Positions 1-12,979 of a DNA stretch of 12,979 nt are shown here, piece by piece. The notes below the pieces were generated by a model that saw nothing but the letters and a program-made list of their open reading frames with translations, was not told the DNA's origin and searched no databases. Position 1 is the first letter of the stretch, and every line of letters starts with the position of its first letter. This DNA is from a virus, in IMG/VR virus record IMGVR_UViG_3300045988_117496, positions 1-12,979 of that record. One strand, written 5' to 3'. The translations under genes were made by a program, and so were the position numbers.

Positions 1-92
1 ATACTCAAGTCCGTGGTGGACGGACATTTGTCTTTCCCCCGCGGACATATGTGTTTGTCTCCGGCGGACATGATGTGCGCTATAGGCGAACA
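1..92. repeat. Left inverted terminal repeat (92 bp)
   Basis: Positions 1-92 equal the reverse complement of 12888-12979, except position 40 (C here, T in the reverse complement of 12940). It contains CGGACAT at 21-27, 42-48 and 65-71, plus a GTCCGT/ACGGAC palindrome at 9-25. Confidence 0.97.
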
Positions 93-95
93 CGC

Positions 96-122
96 AAAAA
101 GACCCCGGTCGAAACCGAGGTC
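96..122 (-). terminator. Rho-independent terminator ending the late operon
   Basis: The minus-strand RNA reads GACCUCGGU-UUCG-ACCGGGGUC followed by UUUUU. That is a 9-bp GC-rich stem (one G-U pair) with a UUCG loop. It lies 15 nt after the TAA stop of the last gene and 4 nt before the ITR. Confidence 0.85.
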
Positions 123-136
123 AAACATTTGTTCGA

Positions 137-1462
137 TTACTGAAAAAGTGGATCAAATACAAAATCCCCAAAATCTACGCACTCTATCTGGTTAATGTCA
201 TACTTTAAATAATTCCTTTTCGCTGTATTAATTGCTTGCATAATTAAATACACTTTTTTCTCTGAAATTTTAATAGAACCCTGCACCATTGTGAACAAGT
301 TTGCTTCTCCTGCTGTATCAGTTTCTTTACCTCTCAGAATCATACTACACGGGAATGTACAATCTGTTGCATAGAAATGAATTGCAGGGCTATCAATAGT
401 GCCTACTTCCAAGGGAGTACCGTCTAGTTTTAAGCCGGGTATATTTATCTCACTCAGTTTAAATTCCAGACATCTTACTTTTGCGGTTCCATTAAAAATG
501 GAATACCTAATTTTTGCGCCGCCTTTACCGGGGATACTTGAGGTCTTTGTAAAAGTCGTACCATATTCAATGCTGTTAATTGGTTTAAAGTAAAGTCCAT
601 CAAACGCCCCAATCACCATATTGAGAATATTCTTATGTCCTTGTTCGGAAGGATGCACGCCGTCATTTGAAAAAGATGATTCATACAGCATGCCCTGATA
701 TGCGGGTATAACACTAAATCCTAATTGAGCAGCTGAATACATCCAGATTTTAATTGCTTTAATTACACTGATGTAAGTTGTTGATGTATGAATCCCCTGC
801 TGATGACCTTCCCATGTCCATCCCATAGGACAAACAACCACGTTTTTACAGTTTTCAAAATTGCTTGCTATAGCACTTTGGAAATCAATCATGCCCTGAC
901 TGATGTCATTTTCAGCAGAGTTTCTGTCGTTGTAACTTCCACCCACAATTATTTTGACAACGTTTTTCTTTTCATTTGTTGTCATTGTGCCTGTTAATGT
1001 GTTTAACATATTTGTATATGTTTTAGTTCCGTCAGCTTTAAATCCATATCCACCAATGGCACTCAATTTAACAGAGTACCCATTTTTCTCAAGAGCATTT
1101 TTGAGCATATACGCCCATGAATATTCTTTATTAGCGATATTCTCTCCTGCACCATAGCTGTCTCCCAAAATAAGAACAGTAGGTTTATTAACTCTTGCCA
1201 ACGCTCCTTGTAATAATGCGTCTGAAATGATTTCCGAAAGTTCTCCGTTAGCTTTCATTTCATTCAAGATTTTTCGTACTTCTTTATCAATTTCAAGTTT
1301 AGCGAAATAATCTGTTACAAATTTCTTTAATTCTTCAAAGTCACCCTGTAATCCAGTAAACTTTCCTTGCATTTCAATCCATTCTTCTGTTAGGTTTTTC
1401 ACGGTTTCAATAATCCATGTTAAGTTCATTTCATGAAAATTCGTATATGGAAATTTAAACAT
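137..1462 (-). CDS. Tail appendage / receptor-binding protein with central SGNH (GDSL) esterase domain
   Basis: 441-aa ORF, the last late gene, with RBS GAGGGGGG-7 nt-ATG. The N-terminus FPYTNFHEMNLTWII resembles phage tail-fibre anchor motifs and is followed by a coiled-coil-like stretch. SGNH blocks are present: I LILGDSYGAG, II SAIGGYG, III GGSYND, V DGVHPSEQGH. The C-terminal ~145 aa has no recognisable motif. Confidence 0.75.
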   Translation of the reverse strand: MFKFPYTNFHEMNLTWIIETVKNLTEEWIEMQGKFTGLQGDFEELKKFVTDYFAKLEIDKEVRKILNEMKANGELSEIISDALLQGALARVNKPTVLILGDSYGAGENIANKEYSWAYMLKNALEKNGYSVKLSAIGGYGFKADGTKTYTNMLNTLTGTMTTNEKKNVVKIIVGGSYNDRNSAENDISQGMIDFQSAIASNFENCKNVVVCPMGWTWEGHQQGIHTSTTYISVIKAIKIWMYSAAQLGFSVIPAYQGMLYESSFSNDGVHPSEQGHKNILNMVIGAFDGLYFKPINSIEYGTTFTKTSSIPGKGGAKIRYSIFNGTAKVRCLEFKLSEINIPGLKLDGTPLEVGTIDSPAIHFYATDCTFPCSMILRGKETDTAGEANLFTMVQGSIKISEKKVYLIMQAINTAKRNYLKYDINQIECVDFGDFVFDPLFQ

Positions 1463-1476
1463 TTTCTTACCCCCCT

Positions 1477-2121
1477 CTAATATACTACTAGGAAAAACTC
1501 TTCTTTAAACATTTCAGTGATTTTACTCAACGCACTCATAGATTTTTCAAGCTTGAAATCCAACACCTCAAGTTCCGACATACCCGTAGACCTTGTTTCT
1601 TTTTCCGTTTCTGTCGTTTCATTTTTAGAATTTTTTGCGTTGTTGTTTGTTTCATCATAGCTTGCTTTTCCCCCATAAGTAATTGTTGTGCTTCCCCTAT
1701 CCACAAGTGACGTTGAGTTGAATCCTGCAACTTTTTCAGCTGTTGAATCAGAACCACTTGTCCCACTATTACTTTTCTGAGTTAAATTTTCTTTATCTTC
1801 CGTTGTAGATTTTCCTTTTTTGTCTCTTGTAATTGTTTCCGTTTTTTCTCCCTCTGTTGTAGAAATGGCAAGTTCTATATCATAGATAATTGAGAACAAT
1901 CGTTCATTTATAGAAGCCCACGAGTTTAGAGCTAAAGCCATTTCGGTTGGTGATGGTATTAAAACTTCCAACTCAGCGCATTTTAAAAGGACATAATTCT
2001 GAATATTATCCTTTCCAATATCATTTACCATATTGACCGGTAAATGACTTATGAAATTATCTTTCAGCAGATTTTCATTCCATGCTAGTAGCCCCCGTAA
2101 ATAAAGTTCTCCCGGCATCAT
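1477..2121 (-). CDS. Putative lower collar / head-tail adaptor protein (gp11-like by position)
   Basis: The ORF sits directly after the portal gene and before the appendage gene, the position of gp11 in phi29. It has a Ser/Thr/Lys/Glu-rich low-complexity centre. The track start (TTG at 2157) is unlikely; ATG-ATG at 2121/2118 follows GAAGGGGGCG. This start overlaps the portal 3' end by 47 nt. I recognise no diagnostic motif. Confidence 0.5.
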   Translation of the reverse strand: MMPGELYLRGLLAWNENLLKDNFISHLPVNMVNDIGKDNIQNYVLLKCAELEVLIPSPTEMALALNSWASINERLFSIIYDIELAISTTEGEKTETITRDKKGKSTTEDKENLTQKSNSGTSGSDSTAEKVAGFNSTSLVDRGSTTITYGGKASYDETNNNAKNSKNETTETEKETRSTGMSELEVLDFKLEKSMSALSKITEMFKEEFFLVVY

Positions 2122-2995
2122 TTTCGCCCCCTTCATTGTGACGTAATTTAACGTCAAGATTTAGATTAAACATTGTATTTGTTTGGTTAATTCCTTCTTT
2201 TAATGTTTCAAGCCATAATTCTGCTTTTGTGAAACACTCAATATTATTGCTGTTCACCTCATCTACAATCATACGTTCTTTCTTGTCACTTCTCACGTTT
2301 GGTATGCCAACTTCATTGCAAAACATTTCTTCCCAACGCCTCAATGTATCCTGTAATTCAGGAGCAATAAAATTCTTTTTCAAATCATTATTGAAAAAAT
2401 CTAACGGAATATTTTCGTTCCCCATCTTCAGTTTTTCATCATAGAAAACGCCAAGTTCACCTCTCATCACCTTATCAAGAATTTTCTTCATTGACTCAGC
2501 TTGACTTTTTCCTCTCACTGCGAAGAGAAATGAAAGTTTGCTGTTCATAATGTTCATTTCACACGTTTCCGCAGTCATAGCCATATTATCGGCATAGTAA
2601 TTTACAATATCAGAAATACCGCTGTAATCTGGCTGTAATCTGATAATGGAACATTGAGCACCAATTTTAGGCTCTAAAATTCCCGTTAATAAAGGATTCA
2701 CAATTACAGCGTGCGTGGGATTATAGTAGATATTATATCCTCTCAATTCGCAATGCTGACATATAACACCGAATTTATCTGTATTTACAACTGCCAAATA
2801 ACCATTTAAAAACAGCGAATATAAAAAATAATTTTTATCCCACGTTTCAGGCAATTCAAACTCAAATACAGACATAACTTTTTCAAGTAAATATTTTTTG
2901 AAAAACATAAACATCTGCGTGTTTTTCGTATGAAGAGTTGATGGACTGTAGGAAGAATTAAACAAGTTTATCATTTCATAACTGTATGGCATCAT
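2075..2995 (-). CDS. Portal (upper collar / connector) protein, phi29 gp10-like
   Basis: 306 aa, similar in size to phi29 gp10. SDKKERMIVDEVNSNN resembles the phi29 gp10 segment EKKERMVTDEVSSND, and LNLDVKLRH resembles LNVKVKFRY (recalled from memory). Confidence 0.85.
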   Translation of the reverse strand: MMPYSYEMINLFNSSYSPSTLHTKNTQMFMFFKKYLLEKVMSVFEFELPETWDKNYFLYSLFLNGYLAVVNTDKFGVICQHCELRGYNIYYNPTHAVIVNPLLTGILEPKIGAQCSIIRLQPDYSGISDIVNYYADNMAMTAETCEMNIMNSKLSFLFAVRGKSQAESMKKILDKVMRGELGVFYDEKLKMGNENIPLDFFNNDLKKNFIAPELQDTLRRWEEMFCNEVGIPNVRSDKKERMIVDEVNSNNIECFTKAELWLETLKEGINQTNTMFNLNLDVKLRHNEGGENDAGRTLFTGATSME

Positions 2996-2996
2996 A

Positions 2997-3641
2997 TCAT
3001 CCCCTTATAAATATTGAACTCCAATATTGCGCGTAAGTGTATCTCTCCGGCTGATTCAGACTTGCTGGTCTCAAATAATTATACATAAACGCATTAGTAA
3101 GCGTTTTCAGGTCATAGTTCCCAGTAGCCCACTCACGCCATGTCATATTGTAACTTGAAGTCGGATACCATTCCGGCTCAATACCCCTGTCAGCGTCACC
3201 AACACTCTCCTGATATTCAGCGAATAAAACAGCGCACTGTTTTCCACCGTCCCACCAGTCATCATGTTTTCCGTATAGAATATCAAGAACCGACAGTAAT
3301 TTTGTTCCCGGCGTCCACTGTACAAGTCCTCTGCCCGGGCCATCTGACGTTGTGCCACCGCCCACTTCAATGAGACCGGGATTCATGGTACTTTCCTTTT
3401 CCATGTTTCCTAACAACGCCATTCGAGCGGTTGGAGACCAACCTCTCTCCTTAAAATAATTGTTAATATTGGCAGCATTTTGTCGCATTTTGTCTCTTGT
3501 AAAATACCCGTTCACAGTATCGGTGACAAGTACATTCCATTCACCGGACGGTAAAGGAATCTCCCCACCGCTACCCCCAGAGCCACCAATGGAAAGACCT
3601 ATTAATAATGCTGAGTTGTCATTTCTGATGTTTCTATGCAT
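2997..3641 (-). CDS. Tail-associated peptidoglycan hydrolase (Phage_lysozyme2-type)
   Basis: 214 aa. ALLGNMEKESTMNP ... GRGLVQWTPG matches the GN-x3-ES ... G-x-G-x-x-QWT signature I associate with the phage tail lysozyme family. The N-terminus is a basic-hydrophobic segment followed by the GGSGGSGG linker. The ATG overlaps the last 8 nt of the tail-knob gene. Confidence 0.7.
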   Translation of the reverse strand: MHRNIRNDNSALLIGLSIGGSGGSGGEIPLPSGEWNVLVTDTVNGYFTRDKMRQNAANINNYFKERGWSPTARMALLGNMEKESTMNPGLIEVGGGTTSDGPGRGLVQWTPGTKLLSVLDILYGKHDDWWDGGKQCAVLFAEYQESVGDADRGIEPEWYPTSSYNMTWREWATGNYDLKTLTNAFMYNYLRPASLNQPERYTYAQYWSSIFIRG

Positions 3642-5010
3642 AATAAACGCCCCCTTCTAACAATGATTTAACTCTTGATATCTCATCTGAATAAGCCCCT
3701 GTAATATTCATGTCCCCATGTTCTACCAAATAATATCCGGTTCCCAGTGACTTAAAAGTACCACGTTTCATATACGGTCTTCCATTTTCATTGTTGTCCT
3801 CGTCAGTGACTGTTAGGAAATATTGAAAAAATGATATCCAACCGTCAGTTCCTATAGTTGAGCCGTTAGACCCTTTTGACGACACTGTAGGAAGAAACTC
3901 ATTTACAGCGTTCCCGATATATCCAACTCCTTTCATGAGTTGAACGGAAGCAATACTACCGAGTGCGGCTACAGATGATATTACACCCTCAAGAGGATTG
4001 TTTTTAGCTTCATTTATTTGAACAGGAACGCCATACATGCCAGAACTATAGCCAAGTAGTGCATTATTATTAGTAAACGAAATGTCGTATACACCTGTTC
4101 TGGGGTCTATTCGGAAATCGACATTAATCGGAGAGTTAATATTTATTTTATTGGTGTCAATTTGCATCACGCCAAACAGTCTCGATGCTATTTCCAACCT
4201 GTGATATGCACCATGATTTAGATAATCACCTCTAGAAGCCTGAGGATGACTTGATAATGTCACACTCCGTTGTAGTTTGTATGCTAAAAGTGTATTCAAT
4301 TTTGTACACACCGCAGGAATTTTCCAATATCCTAACGGAAGTTCTGACACTTCTGTTCCGCCGGGTATACCGAAAGGCATCCATATACAATTTGACACGT
4401 ATTGGAACGGGTTCATAACAATTTTAACAATAGAATCTTTTATTCCCGATTCTTTGATATCAGCCCAATCTATGTCACCGAATGCTTTCTGGCAGAACGT
4501 TGTGAAATCTGTTACTTGAAATTGATAATATTCTAATGCACCCTCTTGACCTACTACTGTCAGTATAATGAACCCTGTTATCCAACCTGCGCTTGCACCT
4601 TCTGGCAGTACACTAATTTCTTGAGCCTTTTTTGTGTAACCGGATTTTGCGGGGTAAAAATTATCTATTACAGAGCCATCAAAAGTGGCACTGCTTCTTA
4701 AAATGTAAAATTCTTCTTCTATGATTTCGCTTTTGAAGCTAGCTAAAACATCACACTCTAATGAACAAATCCATAGACCCTCTTCAAACGTCCAGTCTTT
4801 TACAAAATAATATCTGTTAAACTCTTCAATATAACAGTAATTCAAATTAGTTGGATTCCCAGAAGCATCGTTATATTGTACACTCAGCGTTGGACTTGAA
4901 ATAGAAGAGGGGCTACGTAAAGCCCCTGTTCTAGTCACAACAGCAGAAGAATTTGGAGGAATCCATGTAGAATTTTTACGTTTTCCCACATTGTAAAAAT
5001 GAACTCTCAT
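3634..5010 (-). CDS. Tail knob / distal tail tube protein, phi29 gp9-like
   Basis: 458 aa, directly after the capsid gene as in phi29. The N-terminal YCYIEEFNRYYFVKDWTFEEGLWICSLECDVLASF parallels phi29 gp9 YIMFQNADYGNKWFYAFVTELEF...VHFEIDVLQTW (recalled from memory). Confidence 0.65.
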   Translation of the reverse strand: MRVHFYNVGKRKNSTWIPPNSSAVVTRTGALRSPSSISSPTLSVQYNDASGNPTNLNYCYIEEFNRYYFVKDWTFEEGLWICSLECDVLASFKSEIIEEEFYILRSSATFDGSVIDNFYPAKSGYTKKAQEISVLPEGASAGWITGFIILTVVGQEGALEYYQFQVTDFTTFCQKAFGDIDWADIKESGIKDSIVKIVMNPFQYVSNCIWMPFGIPGGTEVSELPLGYWKIPAVCTKLNTLLAYKLQRSVTLSSHPQASRGDYLNHGAYHRLEIASRLFGVMQIDTNKININSPINVDFRIDPRTGVYDISFTNNNALLGYSSGMYGVPVQINEAKNNPLEGVISSVAALGSIASVQLMKGVGYIGNAVNEFLPTVSSKGSNGSTIGTDGWISFFQYFLTVTDEDNNENGRPYMKRGTFKSLGTGYYLVEHGDMNITGAYSDEISRVKSLLEGGVYYA

Positions 5011-5025
5011 GCTGTAACCACCTTA

Positions 5026-6222
5026 TTAATCTAATAAGAACACAACTCCATTTTCGGTGAAGTCGTTGTAGTATCTGTCATTGAAATGCCAGAAAATGTT
5101 ACTGTATCCGCCTCTCGCATTAAACGGTGACGGTGCAGACCATTCACCGTAAGTTGTAATGCCAACTGCTTCCTCGTCGAATAGCACACCGAAAATGTTA
5201 GAAGTAGCTGTGCCTTCAGTGTCGGAAACAACGCTTCCTGTTGCGTTCATGTATGACGCTTTTACATTAATACCATCAGGGCTGTCAATATTCTGCCAGA
5301 AACCCACTTTCTCGTGATCTGCCATTTTCAAGTAGCTGTCGTTAAAGATGGATGTCATAACACTAGCGTCAATGTTATTTAGCTCTTCAGAATACAGATA
5401 CAGCTTCTGTTTGTTGTACGGTGTATGCCTAGAAATTTCTTTTCCAGTAACATTAATATGGAACTTTTGTGTTCTTTCAGTCATCCAATCCGACACTGTT
5501 TTGATGTAGCCTGTCGCCCACTTCATGAACGGAACAAAGTTTTCTGGCTGTTTTACCGTGTCAGCTGTAAGAGTGGTTCCGGCGACATCGTTATATTTTG
5601 TCACAAGATGAATAACATTTGCAGTGTCGCCTTTCACTTTACCACCAATAAAGTTGGCGAGTGTCATTCTTGCTGTTGCTTCATGTGCCTGTTCAATTAA
5701 ATCAGACGCGTTTGTCATAATCATAGTGACAAACCTCTGAAACTCCTGTTCATTCTGTAACGCAACGTTTAACTGGTCTCTAAATAGTGTAACCTGTCTC
5801 TGATATACATTCTGGCCATAAAAATTTGTTTGAAGTACTTTCGGAATTGCAACTACTTGATCATCCACACTCGTTCCGTCTGTTAAGTCGTATCGGTCAT
5901 CATTATCCCAATCAGAATCCGCAATATTGAGTTTTCTTACATGGTTTCCAAACCTCATGTTATCTTGATATAAACCCTTAAACTTTCTTGAATAGGGTCT
6001 GATAGAAAAAATAGTTCTGCTGAGAACCTGAGAAATTGCGTTTAACAGTGGGTCAATTCCTAACCCTAGTGCTGTAGTGGCAACTGATGTAAAATCACTT
6101 GTTGCAATCGCACTAACTGTGTTTTTCCCTGTTGCCTGATTTACAATTTCATTCAGAATGGCGGCTGAATTAAAATTCGCTACGTTAGGTGTGCCCGGTG
6201 TTAATTTAATAGCTGTCCCCAT
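5026..6222 (-). CDS. Major capsid protein
   Basis: 398 aa with a strong RBS (AAAGGAGTGATTTT-ATG), immediately downstream of the scaffold-like gene. ISQVLSRTIFSIRPYSRKFKGL resembles phi29 gp8 SLVDRIGLVVIR...PLKKFKKG (recalled from memory). Confidence 0.8.
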   Translation of the reverse strand: MGTAIKLTPGTPNVANFNSAAILNEIVNQATGKNTVSAIATSDFTSVATTALGLGIDPLLNAISQVLSRTIFSIRPYSRKFKGLYQDNMRFGNHVRKLNIADSDWDNDDRYDLTDGTSVDDQVVAIPKVLQTNFYGQNVYQRQVTLFRDQLNVALQNEQEFQRFVTMIMTNASDLIEQAHEATARMTLANFIGGKVKGDTANVIHLVTKYNDVAGTTLTADTVKQPENFVPFMKWATGYIKTVSDWMTERTQKFHINVTGKEISRHTPYNKQKLYLYSEELNNIDASVMTSIFNDSYLKMADHEKVGFWQNIDSPDGINVKASYMNATGSVVSDTEGTATSNIFGVLFDEEAVGITTYGEWSAPSPFNARGGYSNIFWHFNDRYYNDFTENGVVFLLD

Positions 6223-6226
6223 AAAA

Positions 6227-6553
6227 TCACTCCTTTACTGGTGGATTAATAATTGAAGCTAACATATCTTCTGTTGTCGGCGGTTCCGGAATCTGGGAGT
6301 TACTCAGGTTTCCAACCTGAATCAATTTGGTAATCTCATCTAATCGGTTGTCCAGAACACCCATACGCTGATTAAAAACATCCTGTGCCGGAACCGGCGC
6401 TGATACTGGTGCTGATGCCGGTGCTGATGCCGGTGTTGGTGTCTGAATCGGAGCCGGAGCCGGAGCCGGTGCTGATACCGTACCCATGATTTTGATAATG
6501 TCCTGTTTGCTGAATCCTGCCCCTGCAAGGGCAATGATGTCTTCGATTTTCAT
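6227..6553 (-). CDS. Putative scaffolding protein with Pro/Ala-rich linker
   Basis: 108 aa, directly upstream of the capsid gene, the position and size of phi29 gp7. It has helical N- and C-terminal segments joined by APAPAPAPIQTPTPASAPASAPVSAPVPA. Its ATG overlaps the upstream stop codon (ATGA). Confidence 0.5.
   Translation of the reverse strand: MKIEDIIALAGAGFSKQDIIKIMGTVSAPAPAPAPIQTPTPASAPASAPVSAPVPAQDVFNQRMGVLDNRLDEITKLIQVGNLSNSQIPEPPTTEDMLASIINPPVKE
6396..6479. repeat. GC-rich tandem repeats (12-mers and hexamers) encoding the Pro/Ala linker
   Basis: The plus strand reads ggcgctgatact, ggtgctgatgcc x2, ggtgttggtgtc, (ggagcc)x3, ggtgctgatacc. Confidence 0.9.
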
Positions 6554-6861
6554 GTATTATCACTCCTTTTTGTTAAATATTTTTTATTACAGAAACCTGC
6601 GTAAATCTTTCCGCTGTCTGAGTATTCACATAGATACCATTCCATGGTGATATCTGTAAACCCGTAACAGAAGATTGTACGTCCCTTTGGCATTTCCACG
6701 ATTATATCTGCGTTTGTATCTGGCTTATCACGCAACAGCAGAGGGGAACTCTTTGTATTTATTTTATATTCGCCATATACGTCGCGATCTGGGATAATGT
6801 CAATCATTCCGTACTGTTCTTCAATATTCGGGTCTAGTAAAATTTTTGCACCTAACGGCAT
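6550..6861 (-). CDS. Stand-alone SH3b-like (SH3_3) cell-wall-binding domain protein
   Basis: 103 aa. LLLRDKPDTNADIIVEMPKGRTIFCYGFTDITMEWYLCEYSDSGKIYAGFCNKKYL fits the bacterial SH3 pattern (L-x-V/L-R-x-x-P, then K-G, then W, then G-Y/F-V-x-x-x-Y-L). No catalytic domain is present. RBS is AAAGGAGTGATACG-ATG. Confidence 0.6.
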   Translation of the reverse strand: MPLGAKILLDPNIEEQYGMIDIIPDRDVYGEYKINTKSSPLLLRDKPDTNADIIVEMPKGRTIFCYGFTDITMEWYLCEYSDSGKIYAGFCNKKYLTKRSDNT

Positions 6862-6865
6862 CGTA

Positions 6866-7060
6866 TCACTCCTTTGCGTCCAGTTTGTCTGCTAGTTTCT
6901 GAATTGCCATTGTATTATTGTTTAAAACTTCTGTGAGGTTATGTATTTCTTCTTTATGGTTTTCAGTTTCCTTGTACCATAAATAAAAGGTCACTGCGAG
7001 GCACGCCACCGGAACTCCCAGAGAACTGAATAACTGACTTATTGCCTGAATCCATTCCAT
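6866..7060 (-). CDS. Holin, BhlA/UviB-like (single N-terminal TM plus charged coiled-coil tail)
   Basis: 64 aa from the ATG at 7060, with RBS AAGGGAG-7 nt-ATG. The TM segment is LFSSLGVPVACLAVTFYLWY, followed by KETENHKEE and a helical tail, the architecture of BhlA-family holins. The track's GTG start at 7150 lies in the leader with a badly spaced Shine-Dalgarno sequence. Confidence 0.7.
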   Translation of the reverse strand: MEWIQAISQLFSSLGVPVACLAVTFYLWYKETENHKEEIHNLTEVLNNNTMAIQKLADKLDAKE

Positions 7061-7086
7061 ATTGTTACTCCCTTCTTTTGAATTGA

Positions 7087-7156
7087 GGGAAAGTGTTGAG
7101 AGCCAACCAAACTCATGTACACGGGTTCCGCCCGTTGGTTTTTGTACCACTCCCCC
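7087..7156 (-). promoter_or_regulatory. Predicted structured element in the ~100-nt P3 leader
   Basis: In the minus-strand RNA, GGGGGAGUG (7156-7148) can pair with CACUUUCCC (7095-7087), giving 9 bp including 2 G-U pairs. This encloses the GC hairpin ACGGG-CGGAA-CCCGU (7135-7121) and possible AACCAA/UUGGUU and GUAC/GUAC pairings. Fold is by eye only. Confidence 0.3.
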
Positions 7157-7165
7157 TACAATTGC

Positions 7166-7194
7166 ATCATATCACATCTTGAAATAGTTGTCAA
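7166..7194 (-). promoter_or_regulatory. Promoter P3 (late operon), sigma-A/sigma-70 type with extended -10
   Basis: The minus strand reads TTGACA (7194-7189), a 17-nt spacer ending TGA, then TATGAT (7171-7166). The sequence upstream is AT-rich. The TGA of the extended -10 is also the ATPase stop codon. Confidence 0.75.
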
Positions 7195-8227
7195 GTAAAT
7201 ATTTTGATTCTATATCAGAAAAACTGACTAGTCCATCTAAGTACATCCCCCAGACCCATATAAACTTATGCCGGAAAGCTGTCAGGTCTCTTGTTGATGT
7301 AGAATACGTAATCTGAGGTGAACCTTGTAGGTGCTGTGTAATATACAGTTTTTCCTTGCTTTTGTGTGTGTATATGGTTATTTCTCCAACTGTCACAATG
7401 GGGACGTACTCATTTATGGGTTCGGATTTAATGTTCGAATAGTCCTCAGCGTAGAAATCATTCTGAATTGACATCTTGTAAAAATCACTATTTTTACCAA
7501 CCATTCTGTATACAGCTGTCTCAGATTTTGCCTGTGAAATTGGAGAGTTGGCTAAATTGATAAGAATAATACCCCTATCGGGCAGATAACTAAATTCCTG
7601 CCCTGTTTTATGCATATCGGTAACTTTGCGGATTAAACCCAGTTTCGCAAAAATATCACAGTTCGCATTTTCACTGTTAGATGCGCATATGAGTTGTAGA
7701 GGTTTATCTCCCATAAGTTCTCGATTTCTGTTTATGGTTTCATAACCATTTAAGAGAGCGATTGTAGCGTTTTTTAACTGTGGTTCTGTCTTTTCTGGGA
7801 TGAACTCGTCATAAAACATCAATTCAACGTCAGATGCCCCGAAACCTCGTAAATTAGATATTGTACCAAGTGCGGCGGAGTAGCCTAATGGTTTTCCTGT
7901 GTTCGTGTATTTTTTCGTTTTTTCGTCAAAACTTGTGTCATAAAAACCAGAATACAGTTTATTAATTGGTGATGGCGTAATACGTCTGTTACAGTCTGTG
8001 TTGTATTGTTTAAACGGATTGAATTGCGGTGTACGTATCATATCTATTTGAGTTTGACGGGTTCGAAGGTAGATGAATTTTTTATTATTTTCTACAGCGT
8101 GTTTCAAAATACCATACGTTTTTCCCGTTCCTCTACCGCCCCATATAAATATGAAAGGGCATCCTGTTTCCAAGATACCCTTTATATTCACATAACCATT
8201 ACTGTCATACAATTCAGGCTTTTTCAT
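7172..8227 (-). CDS. DNA encapsidation (packaging) ATPase, phi29 gp16-like
   Basis: 351 aa. Walker A is WGGRGTGKTY and Walker B is ELMFYDEFI. The segments FIYLRTR, LLNGYETINRNRE and LICASNS parallel phi29 gp16 GARGIGKSY, FIYVRRY, IVFDEFI, LNLMDTVFRNRE and CICLSNA (recalled from memory). Confidence 0.9.
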   Translation of the reverse strand: MKKPELYDSNGYVNIKGILETGCPFIFIWGGRGTGKTYGILKHAVENNKKFIYLRTRQTQIDMIRTPQFNPFKQYNTDCNRRITPSPINKLYSGFYDTSFDEKTKKYTNTGKPLGYSAALGTISNLRGFGASDVELMFYDEFIPEKTEPQLKNATIALLNGYETINRNRELMGDKPLQLICASNSENANCDIFAKLGLIRKVTDMHKTGQEFSYLPDRGIILINLANSPISQAKSETAVYRMVGKNSDFYKMSIQNDFYAEDYSNIKSEPINEYVPIVTVGEITIYTHKSKEKLYITQHLQGSPQITYSTSTRDLTAFRHKFIWVWGMYLDGLVSFSDIESKYLLDNYFKM

Positions 8228-8580
8228 TTCACATATCCCGCAACAAGAAAGTTTCTTCCACGCTGAGATTTTTTGAAAGATACAGATACTTTTCGGAAGT
8301 CCTCACCACATTTTTCTGCCATTGTGATAATACGCTCAAAAGCCTGAATGAATGAGGTTGAGGTTGTCACGTAAACGTTGTGTGTTTCCGCTTCCTCGAT
8401 TGACAGAGTTTTCACTATTTCACCCTTTGAGTTTTCATCTTCCACAATAGCGTAGTGTACGAACTCTACAGTTGTTCCGGCAGTGTCGGAAAGACGGATT
8501 CTGCTCTCATCTTCGAACATTGCAAACATTAACTCCATTGTATACTCGTTTTCCTGAATGTTTGTTTTAATAATTTTCAT
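8224..8580 (-). CDS. Hypothetical small acidic protein, translationally coupled to the packaging ATPase (possible phage SSB)
   Basis: 118 aa with RBS AAAGGAG-8 nt-ATG. Its stop overlaps the ATPase start (ATGA). The C-terminal pattern TTSTSFIQAF...KKSQRGRNF reminds me of small phage OB-fold SSBs. That is a recollection, not a verified match. Confidence 0.45.
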   Translation of the reverse strand: MKIIKTNIQENEYTMELMFAMFEDESRIRLSDTAGTTVEFVHYAIVEDENSKGEIVKTLSIEEAETHNVYVTTSTSFIQAFERIITMAEKCGEDFRKVSVSFKKSQRGRNFLVAGYVK

Positions 8581-8657
8581 GTTATTTTCTCCTTTTTTCT
8601 TTTTATGCTGTTTTACCCACAGCTGGGAGTTGTTTCAGATTGCGGCATGTTTGGTTC

Positions 8658-8879
8658 TTACTCTACTTTTCCGTAGTGTACAAATTCGGCTTCTGTCATG
8701 GATGCTTTTACAACTTCGGTATCCATGGAAACTTTCACAGCCTTTACTCCTGTTTCAGCTTCATAAGATTTTTTAATCTTTGTAGCTGTCACGTTTGCGC
8801 CGTAGTAGGTTTTTTCTACAGACTGCCCGTTTCCGTCTGTAATCTTTGCTGTTACTTTTTCAATGCTTCTTGTAATCAT
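8658..8879 (-). CDS. Hypothetical 73-aa protein, first gene downstream of promoter P2
   Basis: Strong RBS AAAAGGAG-10 nt-ATG about 40 nt downstream of P2. The protein is Lys/Glu/Thr/Val-rich with no motif I recognise. By position it could be a dsDNA- or ssDNA-binding replication accessory protein. Confidence 0.6.
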   Translation of the reverse strand: MITRSIEKVTAKITDGNGQSVEKTYYGANVTATKIKKSYEAETGVKAVKVSMDTEVVKASMTEAEFVHYGKVE

Positions 8880-8896
8880 GTTTTTTCAACTCCTTT
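8878..8896 (-). repeat. 19-nt translation-initiation-region repeat, copy 1
   Basis: Plus-strand atgttttttcaactccttt is identical to 11761-11779. On the minus strand it reads AAAGGAGTTGAAAAAACAT, followed by the rest of the start codon. Confidence 0.9.
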
Positions 8897-8926
8897 TTTA
8901 TTTTGTCTTATTTTTGTTACAAGTAT

Positions 8927-8955
8927 ATAATAGCATATGTGAGCGTGTATGTCAA
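8927..8955 (-). promoter_or_regulatory. Promoter P2, sigma-A/sigma-70 type with extended -10
   Basis: The minus strand reads TTGACA (8955-8950), a 17-nt spacer ending TGC, then TATTAT (8932-8927). An A-tract UP-like element (TTTTAAAAAATACCAAAGAAAAGG) lies upstream. The -35 hexamer contains the polymerase TGA stop codon. Confidence 0.8.
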
Positions 8956-11042
8956 GCCTTTTCTTTGGTATTTTTTAAAAAATCATGCCACAAATCAACG
9001 CTATTGAGAACATTTAAATATTCCATCGTGAGACCAACGGTGTATTCAGAGGGGCGTATAACCACGTTTCTGGTGATGTATACGCTTTTATCCGGATTAT
9101 CTGCGTCGGGGCTGTAATACCCATAATCTGAATCATTATAAACAGATTCCGTGCCACCCGCTTCCCGAAACGTAGTTCCGATTTTCAAAGCTTCCAAACC
9201 GCCCATTCTCTGCAATTCTTCTGCACCTTTTTTCTTTCCCACGCCCGCTATCGTGATTTCAAGTTTGCCGTTTTTTTCTTGAGCATATTTTTTTGCACCT
9301 AAGGTTATAAATCTGTCTGATGTGCCCTCATACTCGTATACGCCTAAATAATGTTCCACGCCTTTTGGGTCTGTGGCATGACCGCCATTTTCTACAGAAT
9401 CCGCTTTTAATCGGATATTTAATTCATCAAATTTTTCTTTGATTTCAGGATATCGTTCCGTTATCAATATTTTGCACGAATCTGTGTCACAATAAACAAA
9501 ATCTTCACCCGCAATATTTACGGCAAGCTTGAGTCTTTGTCTGGCATGAGCAGTTACCCAACAGCCCCATGCATACAGCATGAACGCTCTTTTGTTGTAT
9601 TTTGCTAGCTTTTCCCCTGTATCCCCGTCTTCAACTGAGAATGGTTTTTCTGTGTTACTGTAGATGATATCCGGCTTAACAGGATTCTGTGCGGACATAC
9701 CGTATAGTGCGTTTATCAGCTCTTTTGCCAAAGCGTATTCAATCTCTTTTCCCTCTACACCTTTTAAAGACGTTTTATCTGTGAATAATCGTTTTACCAA
9801 TTCTCTTAAAGACTCCGGGAGATACCCGTACCCTGCCGTGTAAAAATCAGTGAATTCAACTTCATCCCATACGTATTCCCTTTTCACAATACTGAAATCA
9901 ATGTCATTCAGTGTGCACGAATATTCATCCGCTGAAAGTAAACGACCGTTGTCCCAAACTGATTCTTTGCTTATGCAATAACCCTTATCTTTTGTCAAAT
10001 AAGGGGCGCCGTAATAAACATCTTTTTGTCTGATGTTCCGGAAATGAAACCGCCCCACATAAGCTTTGTGAAATTTTGTCCACCTGTCAATGTCCTCTAT
10101 ACCACAATTTCCCTGTCGCACAAATTTTGTCATTGGGAATTCACAGTTGAGCATAACGTCTGGGTAAGAGCTTGCCCTGTCGAATGACGCAACGTTGCTA
10201 AGTATTTTTCCAACGTGATATCTGTTTGCGTGAGTGTCACCGCCCCTGAATTCTTCTCTGAGAAGTATATATAAACTCGTGTCGCACATCATGCTGTGTA
10301 GTTTTTTATAATTGTATTGCTTCATAGCTAGCCTTGCTTCTCTTCTAACGTAGCCAGTTGAGGTTAACGGCAGAGTGTATAGTGTATCATTATTATCCAC
10401 CAATCGTTTATGCATTGCCTGTAATAACCCAATTACATCATTGCACCCGTACTCAATTTCTTTGAGTGTTAATTCCGTCCATGGGTAACGCCGTTTATCA
10501 TAATCAAAATCTTTCAACTTCTGATTCTGTACCCCGCTATCACTCAGAAACTTGTCAAGACTTTTGTGTGTTTGCATATACGAGCACCTAAACTCCAAAT
10601 TCCCTTGCATATGATTTCCTGCCCTGATTCTGAGTATTTTCCGAGGTTTAAGCGAGAACACCTCTTCTGGCTTTATTTCTATGTGTGAGCGTAAAAACTG
10701 AAATTCATATGATAGGTTATGCACAAACACCATTGTGATAAGATGCTCATCCTCAATTCCTATGAACAGTTCTTCAAGTTCGTTCCAATCTCTTCCATAG
10801 ACACATATTATTTCATTACCGTCAAGCAATACTGCAAACTGCCATAAATACATGATGCTCTGTTCAATTTCTGAAAGTCGTGTAGTTTCGATATCGAAAG
10901 CGCATATGCAATTTCTGTATGACTGTTTTGCAAAGCGTTGTTTTCCTCTCATGTTAGGTGTTCTATATATCTGTTGTATTCTACGTATCAATTCCTCTCT
11001 TTGCTTTTTGCCACTCCCTGTACTGATTGAGTAATTCATCAC
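8952..11042 (-). CDS. Family B DNA polymerase, protein-primed type (phi29 gp2-like)
   Basis: Exo I AFDIETT; Exo II HNLSYEFQF; (S/T)Lx2h KSLDKF; Exo III YGCNDV. Motif A is FDRASSYPDVM, motif B KELINALYG, T-x2-A/G-R is TAHAR, motif C VYCDTDS, and KxY is GAKKYAQ. The A-to-B (~150 aa) and B-to-C (~80 aa) spacings leave room for TPR1- and TPR2-like insertions. The start is ambiguous: TTG 11063, GTG 11042 or ATG 11039. Confidence 0.95.
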   Translation of the reverse strand: MMNYSISTGSGKKQREELIRRIQQIYRTPNMRGKQRFAKQSYRNCICAFDIETTRLSEIEQSIMYLWQFAVLLDGNEIICVYGRDWNELEELFIGIEDEHLITMVFVHNLSYEFQFLRSHIEIKPEEVFSLKPRKILRIRAGNHMQGNLEFRCSYMQTHKSLDKFLSDSGVQNQKLKDFDYDKRRYPWTELTLKEIEYGCNDVIGLLQAMHKRLVDNNDTLYTLPLTSTGYVRREARLAMKQYNYKKLHSMMCDTSLYILLREEFRGGDTHANRYHVGKILSNVASFDRASSYPDVMLNCEFPMTKFVRQGNCGIEDIDRWTKFHKAYVGRFHFRNIRQKDVYYGAPYLTKDKGYCISKESVWDNGRLLSADEYSCTLNDIDFSIVKREYVWDEVEFTDFYTAGYGYLPESLRELVKRLFTDKTSLKGVEGKEIEYALAKELINALYGMSAQNPVKPDIIYSNTEKPFSVEDGDTGEKLAKYNKRAFMLYAWGCWVTAHARQRLKLAVNIAGEDFVYCDTDSCKILITERYPEIKEKFDELNIRLKADSVENGGHATDPKGVEHYLGVYEYEGTSDRFITLGAKKYAQEKNGKLEITIAGVGKKKGAEELQRMGGLEALKIGTTFREAGGTESVYNDSDYGYYSPDADNPDKSVYITRNVVIRPSEYTVGLTMEYLNVLNSVDLWHDFLKNTKEKA

Positions 11043-11451
11043 CAGATTTTTCACCTCTATCAATAAACAACTCTAGCGCCTTTGTACTGTCGTATACTCG
11101 TCCCAATGAATAATCGCGAACAGATTCCATGAACTCGCCAAACTCATTTAATTCTTTATAAGTCTTAAATTTAATCCCCAACTTTTCAAGTTTTGCCATT
11201 TTTCGTCTGGCAATTCTCCTTTGCCCTGATACACTGTATAAATCAGATTTCTCAGCTTGTTCTAGCGCTGTCATTGCCCCCCCTCTCTGACGAGCGGTTT
11301 TTATCTGGCTTTCAGGTGGCAGCTGTTGTAGCATGTATTGTATATTACTCTTTGCACCCATGCCGAAATTTTTATTTTGTGCTAAGACTTTAAGCTTTCT
11401 TATAACTTTAGTACGGCGTTTTGCATAATCTGTCATCATGCCACTGCTCAC
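10981..11451 (-). CDS. Candidate terminal (priming) protein
   Basis: 156-aa basic, predicted-helical ORF immediately upstream of the polymerase gene and overlapping it. This matches the TP-pol synteny of phi29 (gp3-gp2) and PRD1. The N-terminal basic stretch is YAKRRTKVIRKLKVL. I see no sequence similarity to known terminal proteins, so the call rests on position and composition only. Confidence 0.45.
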   Translation of the reverse strand: MSSGMMTDYAKRRTKVIRKLKVLAQNKNFGMGAKSNIQYMLQQLPPESQIKTARQRGGAMTALEQAEKSDLYSVSGQRRIARRKMAKLEKLGIKFKTYKELNEFGEFMESVRDYSLGRVYDSTKALELFIDRGEKSGDELLNQYREWQKAKRGIDT

Positions 11452-11761
11452 TCTCCCTTTCCTCTCGTTCTACATCGTGAATATGTTTCACGTGAAACAT
11501 TATCGCAGAACGATTCAGTATTTGTGCTTTGCTCAAGTTGTTATGTTTTGCCAACTTCTTTACTTCTCTAAAAGTTTTATCTGTGAGGTACACACTTGTG
11601 TCATATTTTGGTGTAACCCGACTGGACGCGAATTGAAATCCCGAACCACCGAACTCAAGAACTGAATACACAGCATGCTCTAAATATTCGCTCACTGTTG
11701 TCCCGTATTCTTCTGCCCAGTTGTATATTCTCATATCTAATCGTACTGATAATTTTCTCAA
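11408..11761 (-). CDS. Tandem ribbon-helix-helix DNA-binding protein (putative transcription regulator)
   Basis: There are two RHH-like units: KLSVRLDMRIYNWAEEYGTTVSEYLEHAVYSVLE and TSVYLTDKTFREVKKLAKHNNLSKAQILNRSAIMF. Each reads as a beta strand plus two helices. The TTG start (TTGA overlap with the upstream stop, AAAGGAG 11 nt upstream) is needed to keep the first beta strand. Confidence 0.6.
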   Translation of the reverse strand: MRKLSVRLDMRIYNWAEEYGTTVSEYLEHAVYSVLEFGGSGFQFASSRVTPKYDTSVYLTDKTFREVKKLAKHNNLSKAQILNRSAIMFHVKHIHDVEREERESEQWHDDRLCKTPY

Positions 11762-11925
11762 TGTTTTTTCAACTCCTTTCTTTGCTCTCGTTTTCTTCTG
11801 AGTTTTTCTTTTCTCCTTTTCTCTCTTCCCATTTCATCTGTCGTACCGAGGATGTACCCTGACACAAACATCATGATTAAAGCTATAGACACGTAAATTA
11901 TATCGCTTGTGGTTGTTGCTATCAT
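11758..11925 (-). CDS. Small membrane protein with polybasic C-terminal tail (absent from the supplied ORF track)
   Basis: Hand translation gives MIATTTSDIIYVSIALIMMFVSGYILGTTDEMGREKRRKEKLRRKREQRKELKKH (55 aa). RBS is GGAGG-7 nt-ATG. There is one TM helix followed by a Lys/Arg-rich tail. The ORF fills an otherwise empty gap exactly, and its stop overlaps the next gene's start. Confidence 0.65.
   Translation of the reverse strand: MIATTTSDIIYVSIALIMMFVSGYILGTTDEMGREKRRKEKLRRKREQRKELKKH
11761..11779 (-). repeat. 19-nt translation-initiation-region repeat, copy 2
   Basis: Identical to 8878-8896. It spans the RBS and start of the RHH gene and the last codons of the 55-aa membrane-protein gene. 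Confidence 0.9.
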
Positions 11926-11929
11926 TTCA

Positions 11930-12502
11930 TCACCTCCAATAAATATTTCTACGCTCTGCGTCTGTAATTATATTGATATCACCATATTTCACATATGTCC
12001 CGTGAGTATGCGAACAGTCTCCCGAGAAATACACCAAATATGATTCCAATAAGACAAAATCATGAATACTCATTTCAATGCCATTTATAAAAACAGTACC
12101 CCCAAAATATCCTTTTTTAATCTTCTGTAACAGCTTTTTCAAATCATGGTTAAAATCAATAATTAAACTGTGAATACCTGTGTATTTGATTTCAGCACCG
12201 ATACCGTAAAACTCGATACTGGTCTCTCCTAAAATAGCGTCACACCCTTCAAATGCTACGAGGTCATTAATTGTGACCAACACGTCATTGGTTTCGGTGA
12301 TTTTTTTAAGATCTTCTAACTCTTTAACTGATTCAATAGGTATTATGTGCGTATCTTCAATTCTTGACGCACCGTTATATATCGGCGCAATGTAGCGTAT
12401 AGACCCGTCTGAAAACCTGTGAAAACCATACTTGCCATTTTTGTTCATGTACTCATCAAACTCACGAGTGTGTCTTTTAATTAATTCGATTGTATCTGAC
12501 AT
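11930..12502 (-). CDS. Hypothetical early protein (190 aa)
   Basis: Good RBS AGAAAGGAG-6 nt-ATG; second gene downstream of P1. I recognise no motif. Confidence 0.7.
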   Translation of the reverse strand: MSDTIELIKRHTREFDEYMNKNGKYGFHRFSDGSIRYIAPIYNGASRIEDTHIIPIESVKELEDLKKITETNDVLVTINDLVAFEGCDAILGETSIEFYGIGAEIKYTGIHSLIIDFNHDLKKLLQKIKKGYFGGTVFINGIEMSIHDFVLLESYLVYFSGDCSHTHGTYVKYGDINIITDAERRNIYWR

Positions 12503-12556
12503 TTTATGCTCCTTTCTCCCCGTTGTGCCGGTAGGTCGGCAGTTTATTTTAATATT

Positions 12557-12781
12557 TTATAACCCAATCTGTATCATCTGATAAAAGATACTTGCCATAA
12601 TTTTTCTCTTGTTTCTGTCGTATATAAACAACACATGTGCATCATCATCAAAATACAGTTTAACGGAATCATAAAAGAAGCAAACGTTGTTTATGAAAAT
12701 ACTTGAGCATTTTCCATTGTTTACCATTCTAAAACTCTTGTTGCATTCTCTAATCTTTTCGATAATATCTTTTTTTGTCAT
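12557..12781 (-). CDS. Hypothetical early protein (74 aa)
   Basis: The ATG at 12781 is preceded by AAAAGAGGAG-8 nt. The track's longer start at 12838 lies upstream of the predicted P1 transcription start. I recognise no motif. Confidence 0.7.
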   Translation of the reverse strand: MTKKDIIEKIRECNKSFRMVNNGKCSSIFINNVCFFYDSVKLYFDDDAHVLFIYDRNKRKIMASIFYQMIQIGL

Positions 12782-12828
12782 TTTATTTTCTCCTCTTTTA
12801 CTTGTTGCTATCTCCTTGCTATGATTAT

Positions 12829-12857
12829 ATAATATCACATTTATACCACGTTGTCAA
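12829..12857 (-). promoter_or_regulatory. Promoter P1 (early), sigma-A/sigma-70 type with extended -10
   Basis: The minus strand reads TTGACA (12857-12852), a 17-nt spacer ending TGA, then TATTAT (12834-12829), with an overlapping TATAAT 5 nt downstream. An AT-rich element (TTTTATAAAAACTA) lies upstream. The promoter sits about 30 nt inside the right ITR. Confidence 0.8.
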
Positions 12858-12887
12858 TAGTTTTTATAAAATTATACCGCAATTATT

Positions 12888-12979
12888 TGTTCGCCTATAG
12901 CGCACATCATGTCCGCCGGAGACAAACACATATGTCCGCAGGGGAAAGACAAATGTCCGTCCACCACGGACTTGAGTAT
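12888..12979. repeat. Right inverted terminal repeat (92 bp)
   Basis: Reverse complement of 1-92 with a single mismatch at 12940. Identity stops at 12887 on this side and at 93 on the left. Confidence 0.97.

Follow-up and report, generated by a model that had tools for sequence, protein, structure and literature searches.

The sequence considered here, IMG/VR virus record IMGVR_UViG_3300045988_117496, comprises 12,979 nucleotides (nt; the whole stretch is called the window below) and raises the question of whether so short a stretch constitutes the genome of a phage related to phi29, and, if so, how such a genome is primed and packaged. The answer favoured here, with a probability of about 0.9, is that the window represents the near-full-length linear double-stranded DNA genome of an uncultivated, virulent, short-tailed phi29-like phage from the human gut.

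Physical ends and hallmark genes

The window starts and ends with inverted copies of one sequence, located at positions 1-92 and 12888-12979, which are 99% complementary over 92 nt with a sole mismatch at position 40, just as an earlier note on this DNA had described them. Because the second-longest inverted pair of the window extends over just 37 nt at 73%, this terminal inverted repeat is beyond chance. In addition, an exact-protein look-up retrieved the ENA contig ERZ27333711:k113_99549 (12,989 bp), of which bases 6-12984 correspond to the window with 0 mismatches. Hence, the bases GTGGA are missing at both ends of the window and the real repeat spans 97 nt. The true genome length is thus at least 12,989 bp, and the claim of the earlier note that the genome is complete and bounded by inverted terminal repeats stands with regard to the repeats and to an essentially full length, but falls short by 5 bases at each end.

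1-92, no strand assigned: left inverted terminal repeat, 5 nt short; the true 97-nt repeat starts with GTGGA 5 nt outside the window
12888-12979, no strand assigned: right inverted terminal repeat, short of the same 5 nt, as seen from the inverted-copy match and the ENA contig

Close relatives of the window share these ends. Among 25 contig ends of relatives that reach into the repeat, 12 terminate exactly at GTGGAATAC and another 12 are 1-7 nt shorter, while in the remaining one (L016) GTGGAATAC is fused directly to the Illumina TruSeq adapter GCTCTTCCGATCT with nothing beyond; none of the 25 continues past the terminus into non-adapter sequence. This recurrent stop at GTGGAATAC reflects defined physical ends and not a permuted or circular genome. 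Moreover, the length of the inverted repeat differs between relatives (about 41, 64 and 73 nt as opposed to 97 nt here; L014, L017, L012 and L020 compared), which counts against a shared assembly artefact. At either end, all of these genomes retain the first ~36 nt as well as the CGGACA motifs. With respect to the quality of the public assemblies, the IMG/VR contigs L016, L019, L005 and L011 carry untrimmed adapters in their first or last 10-40 nt, which are either of the TruSeq type (GCTCTTCCGATCT) or of the Nextera type, with AGATGTGTATAAGAGACAG at their end and index-primer sequence among them; the junction with TruSeq marks where the genome truly ends. The size of the genome, ~13 kb, is likewise robust: clusters at 90% identity comprise 1,066 capsid, 1,287 polymerase, 938 portal and 1,392 ATPase sequences, and the longest contigs listed for these clusters measure 12.7-13.5 kb.

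All long open reading frames (ORFs) of the window are located on the minus strand. Once the start codons had been corrected, with ribosome-binding sites, the locations of promoters and the genes called on the identical public contig as guides, 18 genes cover 94.7% of the window, nearly all of which are preceded by a GGAGG-like ribosome-binding site. Comparison with 9-22 close relatives placed 59-86% of the substitutions at third codon positions in 16 of the 18 genes. In the two right-most early genes this share is 41-43%, yet both are mostly intact in relatives. Owing to their third-position-biased substitutions, the ORFs of 55, 64 and 73 amino acids (aa) are real genes and not hidden RNA genes. 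From the right end to the left end of the window, the genes are:

12557-12781, minus strand: early gene 1 (74 aa), which evolves fast or is replaced in relatives
11930-12502, minus strand: early gene 2, 190 aa, fast-evolving
11758-11925, minus strand: early protein of 55 aa, in which a single hydrophobic helix is combined with a tail rich in Lys/Arg
11408-11761, minus strand: 117-aa protein, possible regulator, with weak Arc/ribbon-helix-helix signals, all under curated cut-offs
10981-11439, minus strand: candidate terminal protein of 152 aa, all-helical; Tyr5 and Ser118 are invariant
8952-11042, minus strand: family-B DNA polymerase of the protein-primed type, 696 aa (PF03175, phrog_1907, 1XHX)
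8658-8879, minus strand: 73-aa protein under strong purifying selection (86% third-position substitutions)
8224-8580, minus strand: 118-aa protein with third-position substitution bias
7172-8227, minus strand: gp16-type DNA encapsidation ATPase, 351 aa (PF05894, phrog_2150)
6866-7060, minus strand: holin candidate, 64 aa, one transmembrane helix and a coiled-coil tail, BhlA/UviB-like
6550-6861, minus strand: stand-alone SH3-like wall-binding protein, 103 aa (SH3_3 match below cut-off)
6227-6553, minus strand: scaffolding-protein candidate, 108 aa, containing a linker of Pro/Ala/Ser-rich repeats; its gene immediately precedes that of the capsid protein
5026-6222, minus strand: major capsid protein of the Phi29_MCP family, 398 aa (PF25622)
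3634-5010, minus strand: tail knob with predicted phi29 gp9 fold, 458 aa, residues 335-368 forming a disordered hydrophobic loop
2997-3641, minus strand: gp13-type tail lysozyme, 214 aa, lysozyme domain only (PF18013, 3CSR)
2075-2995, minus strand: portal or upper collar of the phi29 gp10 family, 306 aa (PF05352, phrog_2038)
1477-2121, minus strand: probable lower collar or tail tube, gp11-like, 214 aa, from synteny and a weak profile match
137-1462, minus strand: tail fibre or appendage, 441 aa, with a GDSL/SGNH-hydrolase-like domain in a module exchanged among relatives

Several virion and packaging proteins are recognisable directly. The capsid protein matches PF25622 (Phi29_MCP) with an E value of 7.6e-17 and 62 bits against a cut-off of 27, the portal matches PF05352 (3.3e-20), phrog_2038 (4.5e-34) and, by phmmer, phi29 gp10 (5e-12), and the ATPase matches PF05894 (5.8e-13) and phrog_2150 (1.4e-33). 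The lysozyme belongs to PF18013, matches phi29 gp13 (PDB 3CSR, E 4e-18) and keeps the catalytic motif LGNMxxEST. For the 458-aa protein, no match was obtained by sequence. Its AlphaFold model (73-sequence alignment) reached a predicted local distance difference test (pLDDT) score of 84 and, in a Foldseek search, matched phi29 gp9 (5FB5) with an E value of 3.4e-13, a probability of 1.00 and a template-modelling (TM) score of 0.55, the next unrelated match being at E 1e-3; according to this predicted fold, the protein is a gp9-type tail knob. The 214-aa protein encoded directly after the portal gene features a Ser/Thr/Asn-rich centre and a weak hhalign match to phi29 gp11 (E 1.4e-3, probability just 17%), and it probably forms the lower collar or tail tube. 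The 108-aa Pro/Ala-rich protein is a candidate for the scaffold by its position upstream of the capsid gene; within its gene, 12-nt tandem repeats (window positions 6389-6480) encode the Pro/Ala/Ser-rich linker SAPASAPVSAPVPA. Sub-threshold GDSL/SGNH matches were recorded for the fibre and a weak phrog_2429 match for the holin candidate. For the small early proteins, no match in Pfam searches at E up to 1 exceeded the curated cut-offs, and sequence searches of the PDB with the tail knob, fibre, lower collar, 118-aa and 190-aa proteins yielded chance-level matches only. All phi29-like representatives possess p8, p9, p10, p11, p2 and p16 (Evseev et al. 2024, PMC11476376); the window holds the hallmarks p8, p9, p10, p2 and p16 on a linear genome with inverted repeats and defined ends.

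The description of the window as a phi29-like set of 18 genes in the earlier note is therefore upheld by 18 minus-strand genes with phi29-type polymerase, ATPase, capsid, portal, knob and lysozyme, and the proposed lack of a head fibre gene agrees with the finding that no protein of the window matched phi29 gp8.5. Two further statements do not hold. A conventional endolysin had been reported missing, but a gp13-type lysozyme with the GNMxxES motif, a BhlA/UviB-like holin candidate and a stand-alone SH3-like protein are present. The replication accessory proteins had been called unusually small; only the terminal-protein candidate allows such a comparison (152 aa as opposed to 266 aa in phi29), and the other early proteins (55-190 aa) are within the size range of the small early proteins in the phi29 record.

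Proposed protein priming and packaging motor

The polymerase, which matches PF03175 (3.8e-13), phrog_1907 (8e-59) and the phi29 polymerase structure PDB 1XHX (1.2e-6), exhibits motifs A (FDRASSYP), B (KELINALYG) and C (YCDTDS) in alignment with 1XHX and with the consensus DxxSxYP, KxxxNxxYG and YCDTDS. The segment between motifs B and C, where TPR2 lies, also aligns with the phi29 polymerase, and Exo I (DIETT) and Exo III (YGCND; YxxxD) are visible in the translation.

The start of the polymerase gene is overlapped by the 152-aa ORF, which has ~160 close homologues. An exhaustive HMMER search assembled 39 diverse representatives of this family with 25-50% identity, in whose alignment Tyr5 and Ser118 (YDS motif) are invariant and Phe100 and Met104 (FGxFME) near-invariant. 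The family profile matches the ORF adjoining the polymerase gene upstream in six out of six distant loci (1e-26 to 1e-44), and a family member of just 21% identity is located 38 nt upstream of a polymerase gene. The equivalent protein of Amedibacillus phage AD70P2 aligns from end to end (E 7e-4), with a probability of only 26%. AlphaFold predicts seven helices at a pLDDT of 95. Position and comparison of sequences thus suggest that the 152-aa protein serves as the covalent protein primer, with Ser118 favoured as the linking residue and Tyr5 as the alternative.

A homologue of phi29 p3 was considered and ruled out for the 152-aa protein, given an hhalign probability of 0.4% and a Foldseek search of the PDB that returned nothing below E 4; the BFVD database contributed only unannotated proteins of similar phages. 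Homologues of p3 are confined to phages of Bacillaceae (review, PMC11476376). That the primer is another protein, for instance the 190-aa protein, or that priming proceeds via Tyr5 instead of Ser118, gains some weight from the missing similarity of the 152-aa protein to any characterised terminal protein and from the invariance of both residues. We regard this as unlikely, though: only the 152-aa family stays beside the polymerase gene across clades whose polymerases are ~41-47% identical, and the 190-aa protein evolves fast and found no match in the distant loci.

With the 152-aa protein as primer, encoded just upstream of the polymerase gene, DNA synthesis would be initiated at both ends, and the family-B polymerase would replicate the genome by strand displacement. 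Positions 1 and 3 of the terminus GTGGA carry the same base, and AD70P2 likewise starts with GTG; speculatively, initiation could take place at position 3 followed by a jump back, which the identity of G1 and G3 would allow. The 55-aa early protein (11758-11925) combines a transmembrane-like helix with the strongly basic tail KRRKEKLRRKREQRKELKK and, by analogy with phi29 p16.7, could tether replicating DNA to the membrane.

With regard to packaging, phi29 possesses a prohead RNA (pRNA), which is bound by the basic N-terminal segment of its portal protein gp10. An Rfam scan of the window (E up to 10, permissive filters) revealed neither a pRNA nor a tRNA nor any other Rfam family, in line with the earlier statement that no recognisable pRNA gene exists. 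The largest non-coding stretch outside the repeats comprises 111 nt and is occupied by a promoter and a 5' leader. Unlike phi29 gp10, the portal of the window is devoid of an Arg/Lys-rich N-terminal extension, and the same applies to all small relatives examined. In the literature, pRNA is placed only in Bacillus phi29-like phages. In the proposed mechanism, the nuclease-less gp16-type ATPase would package unit-length DNA via the gp10-type portal, apparently without pRNA. We tentatively propose, at slightly less than even odds, that the gut clade employs a pRNA-free phi29-type motor in which the ATPase docks directly on the portal, together with a distinct compact family of terminal proteins (152 aa, seven helices, Ser118 in the YDS motif).

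A conspicuous RNA structure nevertheless resides in the ATPase gene itself:

8143-8194, minus strand: near-perfect hairpin of ~24 bp with a GAAA loop, covering ATPase codons 12-29 just before Walker A

With z = -7.2, this hairpin emerged as the strongest RNA structure of the window from a 140-nt sliding fold scan of both strands. Every close relative (22 of 22) has retained it, mostly via wobble-preserving transitions; farther afield, AD70P2 features a 10-bp GAAA hairpin at the analogous place and the L025-L028 clade has none. As a pRNA the element was rejected, being a simple long hairpin inside coding sequence with no three-way junction, and a part in the packaging motor as its RNA component, or in the regulation of the motor, is scarcely credible. 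It may instead function in translational control, as an RNase III site or in something else.

Transcription, entry and lysis

The termini and intergenic regions harbour further elements of putative regulatory function:

21-71, plus strand: three CGGACAT motifs (21-27, 42-48, 65-71) with spacings of 21 and 23 nt, mirrored at 12909-12959
9-25, plus strand: 6-bp palindrome GTCCGT/ACGGAC with loop GGTGG, mirrored at 12955-12971 and nearly invariant at the ends of relatives
101-122, minus strand: intrinsic-terminator-like hairpin of 9 pairs followed by a T run, after the last gene
12829-12857, minus strand: P1, a candidate early promoter a short way inward of the right repeat, TTGACA-17-TATTAT with TG
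8927-8955, minus strand: promoter candidate P2, 11/12 matches with TG, after the polymerase gene
7166-7194, minus strand: promoter candidate P3 (late), 11/12 matches with TG, at the end of the ATPase gene

CGGACAT occurs 7 times in the window against 1.8 expected, 6 of these inside the repeats, and recurs at the ends of relatives even amid differing surrounding sequence. Each copy begins a short near-palindrome, and these near-palindromes are likely binding sites of the replication origin or of a regulator. The three best sigma-70 matches (11/12, TTGACA-17-TATTAT/TATGAT with TG) are all situated on the coding strand at module boundaries. In the scheme proposed here, transcription would be one-directional from three sigma-70-type promoters and end at a single terminator at the far end, with P1 serving the early genes, the terminal protein and the polymerase, P2 the two small genes and the ATPase, and P3 the lysis and virion genes. 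Within early genes 1 and 2 (11930-12781), non-synonymous codon changes outnumber synonymous ones and about half of the relatives have these genes replaced outright, a pattern in the sequences that is typical of host-takeover or anti-defence genes engaged in an arms race.

Infection would involve the gp9-type knob with a hydrophobic membrane-insertion loop, the gp13-type lysozyme and an exchangeable esterase-type fibre. The gp9 protein of phi29 carries a membrane-inserting loop, to which residues 335-368 of the tail knob, its sole disordered and moreover hydrophobic segment, may correspond by analogy. Among relatives that are otherwise 82-95% identical, the tail knob and fibre genes undergo cassette exchange (window positions 3808-4957 and 93-1396). 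The exchanged segments comprise ~380 central residues of the knob and almost the entire fibre, and are likely host-range modules; conservation persists in a short N-terminal part of either protein and at the C-terminal end of the knob.

In residues 1-30 of the lysozyme, which begin with MHRNIRNDNSALLIGLSIGGSGGSGGEIPL, charged residues at the start give way to a weakly hydrophobic stretch rich in Gly/Ser/Ala. Judged from its sequence, this N-terminus may resemble that of signal-anchor-release endolysins or represent a flexible docking linker. Distant relatives (L025:6375-7127, L027:6434-7162) encode a CHAP + SH3-like endolysin of 242-250 aa between the ATPase and scaffold genes, a position at which the lineage of the window retains the 103-aa SH3-like part only (6550-6861). 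The gp13-type lysozyme gene between tail knob and portal is present in the lineage of the window and not in the relatives with a CHAP endolysin. The former may thus rely on a split or two-component lysin, or on a tail lysozyme that doubles as endolysin.

Relatives, lifestyle and significance

In IMG/VR, 21 close relatives measuring 10.6-13.6 kb and a fragment of 9.3 kb encode polymerases 90-96% identical to that of the window, exhibit nucleotide identities of 82-95% over 71-100% of its length and share its termini and gene order. A megablast search with the whole window against 50,697 GenBank phage records (a collection that does not extend to BK and CAO records) gave no match, and thus none at the level of genus (~70%) or species (95%). 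The nearest protein matches stem from uncultured human-faecal contigs (polymerase 39-47%, capsid up to 60%), followed by Amedibacillus phages AD70P2/P3 (33% and 31%) and then by Clostridium phage HM2 and Astrithrvirus-type phages of 11.5-11.9 kb.

Among cultured phages, AD70P2/P3 (12.2-12.3 kb; Guelinviridae in GenBank) are the closest relatives. Apart from a single exception, their annotated genes share one strand, much as all genes of the window do, and the modules follow the same order as in the window, namely early genes, terminal-protein candidate, polymerase, small genes, ATPase, capsid, knob, portal, lower collar and fibre. AD70P2 likewise possesses a terminal repeat, of 60 nt, that starts with GTG. 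Seven window proteins match AD70P2 by phmmer and the terminal-protein candidate does so by profile, so that 8 of 18 proteins are detectably shared, with 33% identity for the polymerase and 31% for the capsid protein and no nucleotide similarity. Genes for the gp13-type lysozyme and for the SH3-like protein, both present in the window, are missing from AD70P2, whose guanine-cytosine (GC) content amounts to 26.7% (PMC11476376, Table 1) as compared with 38.4% in the window. The same source divides Guelinviridae into three capsid clusters.

Bacillus phage phi29 (Salasmaviridae) shares with the window homologous polymerase, ATPase, capsid, portal, tail knob and gp13 lysozyme domain as well as a linear genome with inverted ends and a terminal-protein gene directly upstream of the polymerase gene. 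On the other hand, the 19.3-kb genome of phi29 carries a repeat of 6 bp and its early and late genes are transcribed divergently, where the window has a 97-nt repeat and all genes on one strand; besides a head fibre and a separate endolysin, phi29 encodes a two-domain gp13, where the window has the lysozyme domain only; and its terminal protein is unrelated to the candidate of the window in sequence and predicted fold. Accordingly, the Salasmaviridae traits of a prohead RNA gene, divergent early and late operons and a repeat of 6-8 bp are not found in the window.

The Astrithrvirus-type phages (Salmonella astrithr/Astrid, Pectobacterium DU_PP_III, Acinetobacter Phanie; 11.5-11.9 kb) also have small phi29-like genomes but are more distant than AD70P2 (polymerase ~32-36%, capsid ~23% identity) and infect Gram-negative hosts; their lower-collar proteins are shortened (PMC11476376). 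Mycoplasma phage P1 (Delislevirus, 11,660 bp) resembles the window in its small linear genome with inverted repeats (350 bp), family-B polymerase and putative terminal protein, but differs by genes on both strands and a polymerase at the genome end, and it is absent among the 30 polymerase matches listed and among all capsid matches.

The sizes given in the earlier note for phi29 (about 19.3 kb) and Mycoplasma phage P1 (about 11.7 kb) are accurate, but its placement of the window near the lower size limit of tailed phages, with few smaller ones, is contradicted by the polymerase and capsid searches. These returned the cultured phages Vibrio K58 g2 (10,390 bp), Shigella vB_SHGBLB0004 (11,151 bp), Pectobacterium DU_PP_III (11,504 bp) and Salmonella astrithr (11,569 bp) besides AD70P2/P3, so that cultured phages of 10.4-12.3 kb exist. 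Furthermore, a list of 2,115 phi29-like genomes includes ~200 from the human gut of 10.5-14.5 kb in a single capsid class (Evseev et al. 2024, PMC11476376). Novelty is largely refuted as well, with an identical contig in ENA and genomes of up to ~95% identity in IMG/VR: small phi29-like gut genomes of 10-14 kb are already catalogued in hundreds and the sequence of the window is already public. The genome is that of a real but ordinary virus, a new member of a well-populated group.

Contigs with an identical capsid protein originate from human gut metagenomes, and the host is probably a Gram-positive bacterium of the Bacillota; tblastn with the fibre found only two uncultured faecal contigs. 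Phi29-related phage-plasmids, such as those of Enterococcus, have been reported (2024 review, PMC11476376), and a weak ribbon-helix-helix-like protein is present in the window, which together could hint at a linear phage-plasmid or a temperate element persisting in its host instead of a strictly virulent phage. Such a lifestyle is very unlikely, however, as Pfam and PHROGs searches of the window proteins detected no partition, toxin-antitoxin, integrase or repressor-type family, phage-plasmids measure 28-35 kb compared with 13 kb here, and no relative was found in 185,579 species-representative bacterial genomes. The chance that the inverted ends are a fold-back chimera of assembly or amplification, or that the contig covers only part of a larger or a circular genome, is next to negligible: the untrimmed adapters do attest to assemblies that are not clean, but the same terminus recurs in many independent assemblies with differing repeat sequences and lengths of 41-97 nt, no contig extends beyond it or was seen to hold the window sequence internally in a longer one, more than 1,000 protein variants all reside on contigs of at most ~13.5 kb, and the cultured AD70P2 has its own 60-nt repeat.

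Several points weigh against the interpretation of the window as a virulent phi29-like phage genome with the replication, transcription and packaging described above. The terminal-protein candidate has no detectable similarity to phi29 p3 in sequence or fold, and each of its database matches is unannotated. The terminus GTGGAA is devoid of the homopolymeric reiteration of phi29 sliding-back, with repetition restricted to G1 and G3. That pRNA is absent is a negative finding, based on a single covariance model and the lack of space, and the lower-collar assignment draws on synteny and the profile match of 17% probability. Promoter-like sites are not enriched overall (43 against 41 expected), which is why P1-P3 are candidates only. 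Finally, scans of bacterial genome contigs with the polymerase and lysozyme gave no relatives and thus no evidence of the host.

As a discovery, the genome carries little weight; its practical value stems from its lineage, which is extremely common in public human-gut data with ~1,000 or more variants per core protein. The alignment of the 152-aa family and its high-confidence model provide testable residues, Ser118 and Tyr5, and the genome offers a compact model with a clean and well-defined terminus for addressing whether pRNA is dispensable in phi29-type motors and what a minimal terminal protein looks like.

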